From Eledone cirrhosa (lineage: Eukaryota): a DNA stretch of 64,000 bases. Below, in pieces: positions 5,352-22,285 of this stretch (position 1 is its first letter; each line of letters opens with the position of its first letter). The DNA is taken from positions 294,996,001-295,060,000 of the forward strand of contig OZ024743.1 of assembly GCA_964016885.1 (NCBI GenBank), read 5' to 3'. Under the pieces are notes generated by a model. That model did no database searches and was not told the DNA's origin. It saw nothing but the letters and a program-made list of their open reading frames with translations. The position numbers and the translations under genes were made by a program.

Positions 5352-5521
5352 GACAGCTCCATCATGTAGAGCTAATTTGTATTATCCTGTCAGCCAGGAT
5401 GCTATTTTTAGCGGCAGGGAATTTCGAGACAAGCTGGCGTACGAATGACACGTGCGATAATTCATATCGTACACAATTCATTATCTAATATTTTTAGAAG
5501 TGAAAGGATCACTAATTTCTC

Positions 5522-5603
5522 AACAACTACTGATGAACAGAGAAACGTGAGAACTTCACTCAATAATTCGTTGTGAAACAGTCTCCAACACTGTCTAGTT
5601 GTT
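5522..5603 (+). ncRNA. Type I hammerhead ribozyme, apparently intact
   Basis: Stem I AACAACTA/TAGTTGTT; CTGATGA; 38-nt stem II closed by ACA/TGT; GAAA; stem III CAGT/ACTG; GUC cleavage predicted after 5595. Confidence 0.85.
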
Positions 5604-7944
5604 ACCAGGCATTTTTGCCCAATATAGGTATGTTATTTTTCTTAATTTTTCTTAATTTAATATTTAAAGTTAAGGATAACAAACTATATTGCTGTAGTTA
5701 GTATTTTGTTCACCCTAGCAAATTTGGTCCTACGATTCGAACACATATATATTTATATTAGTGTTCATCTTTCTTGTTTATTCAATTATACATACATATA
5801 TATATATATATATATAGATATATATATATATATATATATATATATATATATATATGTGTGTGTGTTTGTGTGTGTATGTATATATATATATATATATATA
5901 TATATATATATATATATACAAAAACACTTACATATATAACTGCGCACACATCCTAACACTTTTCTTATTGCAGTTAACTGTGAGAGAAAATCGTACATTT
6001 TATTGGTATGTGTGTGAATAGAAAATGAGGGAGATCGACAGCGTGTAAAATGTTTCAGATTAAATTTCACATTATATTTAGGTCGTTACCAATTATTGAA
6101 TATTAAATTCACAAACAATATGTTTTCATATTGACTAGACACATCGGCCCTTCATCTAAAACAATGTGAATACAGGAAATTGCGACGTTGTTTCCTATCT
6201 CAGAATTTTTATACATCTTTTAGACTATATTCATAGTGGTTCTAATACACTATTTATACAACAATATATGGTTTGTTAACAACATATTATGCTATTAGGA
6301 CGATGGAATCAGATTTTCTTGAGACAGTTCAAAATATGTGGGACACTTTAGAGCTAGTTTTCTTGATTATTTAAAATGCTAAATTCTATGCCAGGCCCAG
6401 AGGTCATCAGGTTGGAGCTTATCTCGGTGATTGGTGCTAAACGGCTGTGATTATATGAAACTATTCTGTTGCAGGGCTAAATTCAAATGTTGCTTGTACA
6501 CATTATTTTCAGGGTTACTTTGACTGGAAACGCAAAAATGACATCGAATATATGGCCCAAACACCGAGAGCTTGACACACTAACATCTAAGCCACGCGTC
6601 TGTACTGACTATGTTAGCTGCGAATTAATACAAACATAACGTTACTAGAGCCATAATATATGCGGTGCATTGATCCGTTGAGATGATCAGAGATAAATGA
6701 CAGTTTGAATATGACGCTAATCTATTACTATACATTTTCCTGTGGAAGAACTCGATTATACATTAGCGATATGCAAAATAACGAAATACTCATAAATCCA
6801 TTAATACTTGTACTGCTTGCTTACGCTGTTACATATTCATACGTAATTAGCTGCACTCGGGTGTTGAAAATATAGTCCTTTAATAACAGAAGGCAATGCT
6901 TGCATTGCGAAACGAGCTATACCTATTGATCTAGGTCATTACTAACTGATTCATCCACGCTCTTGGCATTTATACAGGCAACGAACAGCGATATTTACGT
7001 TTGTCATTGTGGTATAAAAAAAATATTATAGTCTATTAAATCGGCCCAATATATTACTAACAGCTACGTCAACGATTCAGAGCCTGCATTGATATTAAAG
7101 AAGACACATTTTGGAATATTGTTTAGAAAGTAAAAAATAAAGGGGCGTCTAACGTGTTTAATCTTAACAGAGGTCTCAGGTTGGAAGTGTAAAAGCTTAT
7201 CCATTGATTTACAGGAACAGTCCGTCCGCCGAATCTCCGAACAGTTTCCTCTCATAAAATTACCCTCAAAATGATTGATCTACTAGAAGCTATGACACAA
7301 TACAATTGCAGTAGGACTGAACTCAGAACCTCATCAGTGAGAAGCGAACTTCTAAAACTTCCGGTTTGTTGCGGCAATATTCATAACATAATTTCTAACT
7401 AAATATTATATGGTATGTTATTCAGGAGTTAGTGAAATTTTTAGAACTTTTAATTGCGTTAGTTTTAACATTTAATGTAGGTATCCTCGAAAAGCTTAGT
7501 AATAAGGAAAAACATATATACATTCACTCAATGACTTGTAATATTTTACTTATTTCAGTAAGGGTGGGAGAAAGCTCCAAACGTATCGAAATATAAGCAT
7601 AAAATACAATGTCCATGTTGAAGTAGTGCTGATAGTGTACTTAAATAGATGCACACTATAATAAACGAGCAGAAATGAAATTTACCACCAGGAATATCTG
7701 TTTAAAATTAACATTTAAAATGTAATTGAATTATTATTTCTTGAAAATGTACTTTATGATTTCTTAATAACTACATCGATAAGCGTGACGAAGGCTATGC
7801 ATCGCTGATAAGTAAAACCAAAAATTGTTTGTCAATGTCTTTCGCACTTGCTGAAAAGATGTATACATATTAATCTTTGATTATATATATATATATATAT
7901 ATATATATATATATATATATATATATATATATATATATATATAT

Positions 7945-8120
7945 CAGCATCATCATTTTACGTCCACTTTTCCCTGCTTGCAAGGGTGGGACGGGAACTG
8001 ATTCTGGCTTGATTTCTACAGCTGGATGCCCTTCCTAGCACCAGCCTCATTTACAGTGAGTGGTGGGTGCTTTTTTGCCGTGGCACCTCCACGACCACTT
8101 TGAACTGGAATGATAGGGAC
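7945..8120 (-). mobile_element. SINE 3' part with V-domain-like core
   Basis: CATCATCATTTTACGTCCACTTTTCC…TTTCTACAGCTGGATGCCCTTCCT (reverse complement AGGAAGGGCATCCAGC); older copy near 29508-29625. Confidence 0.7.
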
Positions 8121-9654
8121 CCCATATATATATATACGTATATATATATATATATATATATATATATATATATATATATATATATATATATATATATATA
8201 TATATATATATATATATATATATATATATAGAGAGAGAGAGAGAGAGAGAGAGAGAGAGAGAGAGAAATTACATGAATCAAAGTTCAGTTTAAATCATTT
8301 ATTTGCTTACAATTGTTTCCTCCAAACCGAGGTTTGGATTGTTCGGAGCAATTATTTAGTGATTTTTTACATACTTGACCTCCTTTTCAACACAAGAGAC
8401 ATATAGAAACATATGTATATATTGACCCACAGTGGGTTGACATCCCTCATAATAATATAGCATGGCAATTTACATACAAAGAATACAGTCATATTAAAGG
8501 ACAAAATTAAAGTTAAAATAAAAATAAAAATAAAAATAAAACATTGGCAGTTTACTAAGATAAAGCAAGAGGAAAGTTTGGAGTAGCCAGTGTATGCAAC
8601 AGTCTCACGTGTGGCATGCACGCGTGTCCTATTTATACAAGATTATAGTACGGCAGATTGTTACATTTAAAACAAGCAGTCAAAGCAGGCAATCAATAGC
8701 ATCATGGGGATGTACTGTTAAAGCATTTTTCACACACACCTGTACGATATAGAAGCCTGTGTGTTGAGAAACACCAAAAATATCAAAAATATCAAAAATA
8801 TTACAAATGAGAAGCAAAACAGCACCACTGTCCTCGCACACACCACCACTCACACAATCCAGGAAACGCAATTTATAGACTATATGTCCATCACACAATC
8901 CACGATGATTCAACATTGGGTGCCTGGTGAACCATGTTAGAAATCATAGCTTGTCGTTTTCTATTCGATTCTATAGAGCAGGTTGTTTTTTGTTGTGAGA
9001 GTTGACATCGTATTATATTCCGGAAGTGTGTGTGTGATTAAGGGGAGTGAATGCGTAAGGGGAGGTAACTAGCTGATTTCCATAGTTAAATTTATTATCC
9101 TAAAGTACATTAATGGTGTTTCAAATGAGTCTCTATCATATAAGGTTATAAACAATTTCTAGATTTAAGTATCTTATCTATAAATTACAGTGTAGTCTAC
9201 CAAGAAGTACTAAAGGTGTTCATATTAGGATGATTACCATCTATCATTGAGTGCCACAACCGAACATTCTACAGGAAGAGTCAGACCTCCAAATCAATGA
9301 TGTTTGTAAGTGTAGTCTACCCGCAGAACCTGGCAGGGTCTTATTAGAATCACTTCTATATATGACTCCTGGTAAGCTCTAGGTCATTGTATGTCTGAAT
9401 GCATGGCAAAGTTAAATATCACCAGGGTGGTCCAGAGATCAATTCTCTCATACAAAGACACTAATCTAACCATCAAGCCATACATATCCCTATAACTCAT
9501 ACATCACCTGTACATAATTCATTGCACTCAGCATATAGATTATATAGCTCTTTTATGTTAATAAATTAATTACTTAATCTTCTATTCATCCAATGGTGGC
9601 ACTCCATGCACAGGACAATGTTAGCACAACCAATTCAGTGCTTACAGTTTACAT

Positions 9655-21200: not shown

Positions 21201-22002
21201 TACATTTTATTGGGAAATATCACAGAAGATTAGTTTCCGTTTCACTGTAAGTTTGTTTCTTTTCTGTGTTGAATGTATTTGAAGGACAGAGAAGTCTTGC
21301 TGGAAAGTTATTCTATTGTTAATGAAATAATGTATCTCACATTTTTTGTTATTGTTTATTTAATTTACGTTTCAAATACAATTTTTAATTTTTAAATATT
21401 TGCAGTTATTGTGTTTACCCATCATCGTGTCCCTTCAATAGAAACTAATTAGAGACGTGTAAATTACATTACAATCATACACATAATCACCCACACACAA
21501 CCATACATATATCTATATATACAAATATGAGTGTATACACACATCCACATACATATATATATATATATATATATATATATATATATATATATATATATAT
21601 ATATATATATATATATATATATATATATATATATATATATATATATATATATATATATATATATATATATATATATATAAATCGAAGCTGTAGCCGCAGC
21701 ATTTCAGATGCCATTTATATATATATATATATATATATATATATATATATATATATATATATATATATATATATATATATATATATAAATGAAAATAGAG
21801 AAATTAATGTGGGCAAGAAGCCAACAGTAATTCCCAATATATAAGTGACTATTACGTCAAGATGGAAAATATTTAACGTAAGATATGGGAAAATTATTCA
21901 ATCTCAATTCAAAAAAAGTCAAGACAGAAATTTTATCCACAGATTTTGTGTAATCCAGGGAAAAAAAAAATCTTATCCTTCAATTTGGAAAAAACTACAA
22001 AT

Positions 22003-22082
22003 GCTCTATATAGTCTTAAAAAGACTATTTCACGAAATTATCAGTGGGGTTAGTCACGGTTGGGGCCGTTCATCAGTAGAGC
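22003..22082 (-). ncRNA. Type I hammerhead ribozyme, apparently intact, in a ~430-bp island (21788-22220) between (TA)n tracts
   Basis: Minus strand: GCTCTA-CTGATGA-ACG…(38 nt)…CGT-GAAA-TAGTCTT TTT AAGACTA-TA-TAGAGC. Confidence 0.88.
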
Positions 22083-22205
22083 TCACACACGATAACCAAA
22101 ATCACTGCTAAAATATGCTAGAAAGGGAATTTAAAAGCAGGCTAGTTACACCTCGTGTGGAATTAAGATAATAAACACACATGGAGAACAGGGCTAGTGA
22201 CGTCA

Positions 22206-22285
22206 AGTATCTTGCTCCAGTATATATATATATATATATATATATATATATATATATATATATATATATACTGGAGCAAGATACT
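22206..22285. repeat. Perfect 15-bp inverted repeat enclosing pure (TA)n
   Basis: AGTATCTTGCTCCAG (TA)n CTGGAGCAAGATACT. Confidence 0.9.

Follow-up and report, generated by a model that had tools for sequence, protein, structure and literature searches.

A predicted long helix between the stem I flank and loop II of type I hammerheads in dispersed repeats of Eledone cirrhosa

The stretch analysed here, called the window, comprises 64,000 nucleotides of Eledone cirrhosa (assembly GCA_964016885.1, contig OZ024743.1, positions 294,996,001 to 295,060,000 of the forward strand) and is rich in (TA)n and in retrotransposon relics. It contains two type I hammerhead motifs, A and B, whose flanks and loops are the subject of this report. 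A is located at 5522-5603 of the plus strand with the core elements CUGAUGA at 5530-5536 and GAAA at 5575-5578 and a predicted cut after 5595 (GUC). B is located at 22003-22082 of the minus strand with its core at 22070-22076 and 22028-22031 and a predicted cut between 22009 and 22008 (AUA). Hammerheads at these two places had been proposed in an initial annotation made from the window alone. A scan with a strict type I descriptor returned both as the sole matches within 64 kb, and no match occurred in 100 shuffled windows (block-wise dinucleotide shuffles); A was additionally backed by family copies. Both motifs show a CUGANGA and GAAA core, three helices, a UH cleavage site and an open stem I. 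Stems I, II and III have 8, 4 and 4 bp plus A15.1-U16.1 in A, and 6, 4 and 7 bp plus an A-U pair in B; N17 is 5595 and 22009, respectively.

The distance from CUGAUGA to GAAA was 38 nt in A and B alike. This segment had been annotated as a 38-nt stem II, which turned out to be a 4-bp stem closing a loop of about 30 nt. The shared pattern CGTGA..AAC is present in both, but in A one base instead of two separates CGTGA and AAC. Likewise, ATAATT occurs in both motifs, yet it is confined to these two copies; the majority of A copies read AATAAGT and the majority of B copies AAAAGTT. The first stem II pair of A, A10.1-U11.1, is a minority allele, because 51 A copies carried G-C in 40, G-U in 5 and A-U in 4 cases, with the pair broken in 2. 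Therefore the likeness of A and B is partly coincidental. The proposed homology holds for the two type I hammerheads, while the likeness of the whole units is weak (z 3.3; 2.3 without the ribozyme). Despite this weak overall similarity the units have a 3'-end motif in common.

A search of the host assembly (3.0 Gb) identified A and B as members of two dispersed families. The best 40 of 770 candidates for A had 94-97% identity; for B the best 40 of 2,238 candidates were scored. Exact matches to the 3'-motif numbered 498 for A and 1,267 for B, compared to 0 for the control. Natural dimers yielded unit lengths of 521 bp for A (locus L148) and 627 bp for B (L144) with GC contents of 35% and 32%. 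These dimer units were devoid of open reading frames (ORFs), the longest open stretch being 71 codons. The ribozyme core was intact in 41 of 51 A copies and 65 of 67 B copies. The pair of motifs in the initial annotation is real, but what was missed is that both are copies of high-copy, non-autonomous repeats of Penelope type.

The A copy of the window is a 5'-truncated forward piece at 5313-5790 (plus strand; about 0.9 of the 521-bp unit; 92-95% identity in blastn against L148 and L010), which has the common 3' end before (TA)n. An inverted piece of the family A 3' tail at 5240-5316 (minus strand) is joined to the 5' end of the insertion, a 5' inversion of Penelope type. A long hairpin at 5253-5335 stems from this junction and gave a sub-threshold Rfam match. 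The B copy is a 5'-truncated piece of the 627-bp unit at 21789-22205 (minus strand) with an internal deletion of about 37 bp relative to most copies; its 3' end abuts (TA)n at 21549-21787. Directly upstream of the B copy lies a perfect palindrome (22202-22287) with a (TA)25 core and a sub-threshold match to a microRNA family.

A and B copies were 5'-truncated and frequently had an inverted 5' piece or a partial tandem. They ended at fixed 3' places before (TA)n, in A mainly at about +250-260 and +320-340 from CUGA and in B at about +320. Truncation and inversion at the 5' end, partial tandems, discrete 3' ends with a tail and (TA)n targets make up the anatomy of Penelope-type insertions. In addition, one type I hammerhead per non-coding tandem or dispersed unit and a GC content below 45% are features of non-LTR (long terminal repeat) retrozymes. 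We regard A and B as ORF-less repeats that were probably copied by a Penelope-type reverse transcriptase (RT) and that probably spread as parasites of Penelope-type retrotransposons.

The initial annotation had taken covariation between A and B as direct evidence of selection on the fold. Two sequences by themselves do not amount to direct evidence, but the claim was upheld by the larger samples of copies. Among 67 B copies one stem I pair read U-A in 49 cases and A-U in 16, a compensatory change, and the stem II alleles of A were given above. Covariation of the stems was also seen in an alignment of a further family, F (see below), as expected of type I hammerheads. The comparison supports the view that the hammerhead fold of A and B is under selection.

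The alignments of A and B showed that loop II is colinearly, segment by segment, antiparallel-complementary to about 40 nt upstream of stem I. The predicted helix, termed H, would comprise about 17-23 bp and leave all core and stem bases free. In A the 5' strand of H spans 5498-5521 (segments 5498-5504, 5509-5512 and 5516-5521; plus strand) and adjoins stem I; the 3' strand inside loop II spans 5540-5561 (5540-5545, 5547-5550 and 5555-5561) and an A/U-rich linker of 11 nt leads from it to stem II. In B the strands are predicted on the minus strand at 22092-22107 (22103-22107 and 22092-22099) and, inside loop II, at 22042-22057. The weak similarity of the upstream flanks of A and B noted initially is real, yet it is more than shared ancestry in that the flank is predicted to pair with the stem II loop. 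The median energy of the cognate duplex was -15.8 kcal/mol in A (55 copies) and -16.3 kcal/mol in B (37 copies), while cross-family duplexes had -7.9 and -11.2 kcal/mol. In both families the immediate 5' flank was the best partner of loop II among all windows of the unit.

H was first predicted from A and B, and further families were sought with patterns blind to one of its strands. A pattern with a free flank gave 7 matches (control 1) and led to families C and E. A pattern with a free loop II gave 333 matches (control 32) and led to families F and G; here 20 loci, picked by eye for divergence, were taken from 100 matches listed. The flank-loop II arrangement was thus found in six families (A, B, C, E, F and G) with differing sequences. 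A, C, F and G are homologous across the unit (z 11-60), and B and E are distant. Family E is a high-copy family with a unit of 680 bp (best 40 of 3,730 candidates scored; L170, L174, L386-L409). Its domain II of 49-50 nt contains an internal hairpin and its stem III is short and partly palindromic, and E may combine the flank pairing with classic dimer dependence.

In 21 of 29 representative copies the duplex energy was better than that of flank shuffles at p<0.05, among them 4/4 of A, 3/4 of C, 9/10 of F and 3/3 of G. In an alignment of 11 F copies a 17-pair H was 89% paired, compared to 36-46% in slid registers, and 4 of the 17 pairs were changed on both sides. One of the helix pairs was G-C in 7 and A-U in 4 copies and broken in none. 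For the whole structure of F, 7 double-sided pairs were counted vs 2.6 in shuffles, and none of 500 shuffles reached the observed value. In B the central 8-bp segment of H had two positions with pairing-compatible changes only, G-U 37 / A-U 28 and U-G 62 / C-G 3 of 65 copies.

Rfam yielded no hammerhead match for A or B at E<=10, none among the 150 listed of 171 matches for the whole window, and none at the gathering score for four F, C and G loci. This failure is likely due to the long loop II and is then a limit of the models, not a defining feature of the class. Since the Rfam models fail on these motifs, other genomes may contain comparable long-loop hammerheads that escaped notice.

The position of H relative to the ribozyme was constant. 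In all 10 copies tested (joint null <=0.033 each) the gap between H and stem I was 0-3 nt and that between H and the stem II arm 0-4 nt; H enclosed 17-23 nt in these copies and spared the core. The core halves were 35-41 nt apart in A, B, C, F and G. The predicted H joins the sequence beside stem I to that behind stem II, which is the arrangement of pseudoknotted hammerheads. The fixed register beside stems I and II and the constant distance of the core halves would suit a purely activating pseudoknot, which coexists cheaply with stems I-III in cis and, with a robust stem III, would give a fast monomeric ribozyme, the view of the initial annotation with a tertiary contact added. The A/U-rich linker is also in line with this, as such linkers are known from H-type pseudoknots. 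Furthermore, a crude melt-plus-stretch polymer estimate put the cost of cis closure at 4.6-9.8 kcal/mol, and the A copy of the window had the lowest value. About 40% of hammerheads use a contact of this kind according to Perreault et al. 2011 (PMC3088659), which describes the same geometry as activating in bacterial hammerheads. Yet the helices published there have about 4-6 bp, not 17-23 bp, one F copy (F214) has a 24-nt span facing a 7-nt linker, and a mere activator needs no selection on distal pairs. We consider activation as the sole function of H rather unlikely.

Folding was carried out with 22 of the 29 representative copies. In 22/22 the unconstrained ensemble was favored over the hammerhead fold, with no pseudoknot modelled, by 3-22 kcal/mol. 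When circular units were folded, A retained 16 and B 11 pairs of H, and stem I was absent in both. These data may be read as a pure lock, where H and the ribozyme exclude each other, much as viroids and plant retrozymes have strands that block theirs. In that case the flank and loop II would each fold into a hairpin in the active state, which the RNA would enter kinetically or with the help of a protein of the Penelope-like element (PLE). In A, flank and loop II are each able to form a hairpin of their own, and an Anolis PLE hammerhead is described in PMC11167929 as requiring protein. On the other hand, the energy model cannot score the pseudoknotted state, and sparing the core and all stem arms would be a roundabout way of blocking. 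We judge a pure lock unlikely. That H leaves every core and stem base free fits better with a clamp than with a lock.

We favor, at a probability of about 0.45, the view that H is an oversized pseudoknot clamp that throttles self-cleavage of single copies in repeats copied by a Penelope-type RT. This is preferred over pure activation, a pure lock and a helix without a role in cleavage. The motifs, the anatomy of the repeats, the complementarity with its fixed register, the compensatory changes and the reading of about 40% of the sampled insertion segments through an intact site are seen in the sequences; the steps beyond are what we infer from them. Because both strands of H precede GAAA, H would fold first during transcription and present the 5' arm of stem I, CUGANGA and the 5' arm of stem II as a loop of 17-23 nt. 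The downstream half, i.e. the 3' arm of stem II, GAAA, stem III, the UH site and the 3' arm of stem I, would then dock on the loop held by H. H would thereby tie the distal ends of stems I and II like the short pseudoknots of bacterial hammerheads. The linker from loop II to stem II has mostly 4-11 nt. In a single copy it would have to span about 20 bp, so docking would mean that H is stretched or frays at its far end. Many RNAs, whether in linear or in circular form, would then stay uncut and serve as templates, and cleavage would be easier where a tandem neighbor supplies the downstream half or where a protein assists. Stem III of A and B is long enough for the monomeric cleavage that the initial annotation suggested. 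Since the hammerhead fold lost to the ensemble in 22/22 copies, a single copy may be gated by H instead of by a weak stem III.

A bolder version would be a tandem-sensing ribozyme. The half of copy n with GAAA and the cleavage site would dock without strain on the CUGANGA loop of copy n+1, clamped by H, forming a pseudoknotted type II hammerhead across the junction; stem II could not be closed within a single copy or monomer circle as long as H is zipped completely. This version, which we regard as doubtful, would mean a dimer dependence by swapping of stems I and II instead of the known swap of stem III, and it would explain how a circle of an animal retrozyme avoids being cut again. Dimer control of minimal hammerheads, as described in PMC4209133, would be paralleled by another route.

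Insertions show that RNAs with the site intact served as templates. Insertion segments were sampled from the first ~100 matches listed, inverted pieces included. An intact site was read through by 36 of 89 segments in A and 35 of 80 in B (about 40%), and only 1/89 and 2/80, respectively, ended within 5 nt of it. A cleavage footprint in the form of a pile-up of 5' ends at the predicted site was not seen among the sampled A and B segments. In family A about 20 of 89 truncation or inversion points were found at +72 to +99 from CUGA, i.e. 6-33 nt 3' of the site, with 9 at +89. This excess, which extended over 0-35 nt 3' of the site, may be caused by stalling of the RT at stem I or a small hairpin, or by an alignment artefact of variant alleles.

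Several points speak against a clamp. According to PMC11167929, RTs of PLEs use uncut RNA anyway, and read-through templates need no H. The flank-shuffle test was weak in B (2/6 copies at p<0.05) and E (0/2), and pairs of the B helix were broken in 21 of 65, 16 and 35 copies, affecting whole subfamilies. Fragments of flank plus loop from the A and B copies of the window showed no folding advantage over shuffles (z -0.89 and +0.12, compared to -3.9 in F copies). Owing to cross-pairing among A, F and G, the cognate loop ranked first as partner in just 11 of the 29 copies. Other folds outweighed H in 8 of the 22 copies folded and in the circle of family C, and RNAalifold on the MAFFT alignment returned no H, but a weak flank-core helix (-1.5 kcal/mol) in its place. 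The pair register of F was set by the analyst on the very sequences tested, whose relatedness makes the shuffle test too favorable, and the strain figure is a rough polymer estimate. Finally, tblastn of the PLE frames of the window against the fetched loci identified no autonomous partner but scattered matches, with proteins of the window as the only queries.

The weakness of H in B and E raises the question whether the complementarity is unrelated to cleavage, being either left over from an old inverted duplication or a hairpin retained for binding of the RT, for stability of the RNA or for transcription. The flank motif TAG.AGTG is conserved even where it is unpaired, which hints at another role, and the weak flank-core helix is an alternative to H. 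However, the double-sided changes within F, the occurrence in six families with different sequences and the constant register relative to the ribozyme are not accounted for in this way, which makes it quite improbable that H has no part in cleavage.

A third member, a diverged copy resembling family C, lies at 62834-63191 (minus strand). It has its core at 63113-63119 and 63072-63075, a decayed stem I and a predicted H of about 63133-63151 with 63085-63107. A perfect palindrome of 86 bp at 62446-62531 gave a sub-threshold match to a microRNA family. Among 197 hammerhead copies two had a same-strand PLE match within 900 nt upstream, both explained by neighboring insertions. L089, L125, L219 and L273 were rejected as autonomous partner and are read as insertions into or beside other PLEs. 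The units had no similarity to the 3' regions of three PLE relics of the window and a weak AT-rich likeness (z about 3) to a fourth.

The window also harbors a young Penelope-type relic with RT and endonuclease (EN) at 52132-55706 (frames 53152-54664, minus strand) and a 563-bp inverted 3' repeat of 97% identity. At least 150 copies of its EN are present with 97-100% identity, and open frames elsewhere reach 798 aa. This element had no 3' sequence in common with the A and B units. In its 3' region a conserved CUGAUGA-stem II-GAAA core is present at 52286 (minus strand), with no evident stem I. Another Penelope-type element (57873, minus strand; 58124-61240) has endonuclease ends in duplicate, and its 3' region contains a minimal core resembling that of a hammerhead; a relative at L273 has the same arrangement. 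An inverted repeat family at 56698 (minus strand), 57235 (plus strand) and L139:3915 displays CUGANGA-CGAA...UUCG-GAAA with a long loop II, and no canonical closure of stem III and stem I was seen; it is possibly a further atypical hammerhead. An open stretch of 360 codons at 32146-33228 (minus strand) had no Pfam match; it may resemble a protein derived from a DNA transposon. Outside the genome, a pattern scan gave 17 matches in metagenomes and 1 in viral contigs and no homologue, a weak blank because the pattern used CGTGA, which is not family-wide. The majority of these matches resemble coding sequence. L094 is apparently a short motif similar to a hammerhead but unrelated, and at L099:1-300, the end of a metagenome contig, two hammerhead-like sequences of Penelope type form an inverted pair with no relation to A or B.

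The class of repeats as such, animal non-LTR retrozymes, is already known; the new part is the long covarying helix between flank and loop II. A literature search found no such helix described for an animal hammerhead; it covered few subscription papers, and the mussel folds in the supplement of PMC7229834 may bear on novelty. The latter paper leaves open how RNAs of animal retrozymes and PLEs keep an intact hammerhead from cutting the template of the RT. A self-pairing element with compensatory changes and a fixed register in six families of one animal genome bears on this gap. Therefore the question of template protection is testable with transcripts of about 150 nt. For the production of circular RNA, a hammerhead that is gated or tandem-dependent by nature would also offer a design lead. 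If H were neutral, we would be left with an ordinary new retrozyme family.

Non-LTR retrozymes of metazoans have been proposed to be non-autonomous derivatives of PLEs (Cervera and de la Pena 2020, PMC7229834; Li, Clavereau and Pollet 2026, bioRxiv 10.64898/2026.07.22.740005). Like A and B they are ORF-less, low in GC, have one type I hammerhead per unit and occur as monomers and short tandems. The unit length of 519-680 bp over our families lies outside the 170-400 nt of the 2020 definition (PMC7229834) and within the 51-972 bp of the 2026 preprint. They differ from the repeats described here, which have a loop II of about 30 nt, a stem III of 4-7 bp in A, B, F and G and the covarying flank-loop II helix. 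Most circles of animal retrozymes are not blocked by self-pairing, some mussel circles excepted (PMC7229834).

With the hammerheads in pseudo-LTRs of PLEs (Cervera and de la Pena 2014, PMC4209133; Craig et al. 2021, PMC8557442; Frangieh et al. 2024, PMC11167929) A and B share 5' truncation and inversion, partial tandems, alternative 3' ends ('tail'), (TA)n targets and the use of uncut RNA. Unlike these, no RT-EN frame was tied to the A and B units in searches with the PLE proteins of the window. Hammerheads of animal PLEs are minimal, with a stem III of 0-3 bp and a short loop II (PMC8557442), whereas A and B have 4-7 bp and about 30 nt. With a stem III of 4 bp (A) and 7 bp (B), they also fall outside the minimal dimer-dependent PLE class with 0-2 bp and a palindromic loop. 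In the parts consulted of PMC8557442, long loops II are listed only for spike-moss PLE-X1, where a flank helix is not annotated.

The closest structural parallels are found among pseudoknotted hammerheads. Those described by Perreault et al., mainly of type II, have the same kind of Watson-Crick helix joining the strand on the side of stem I to the strand after stem II, and the type SGC hammerhead (Eckert et al. 2023, PMC10085705) has a similar helix linking stems I and II. Compared with the bacterial pseudoknots, H is predicted to be 3-4 times longer, belongs to a type I ribozyme of an animal and has a short linker that would strain closure in cis.

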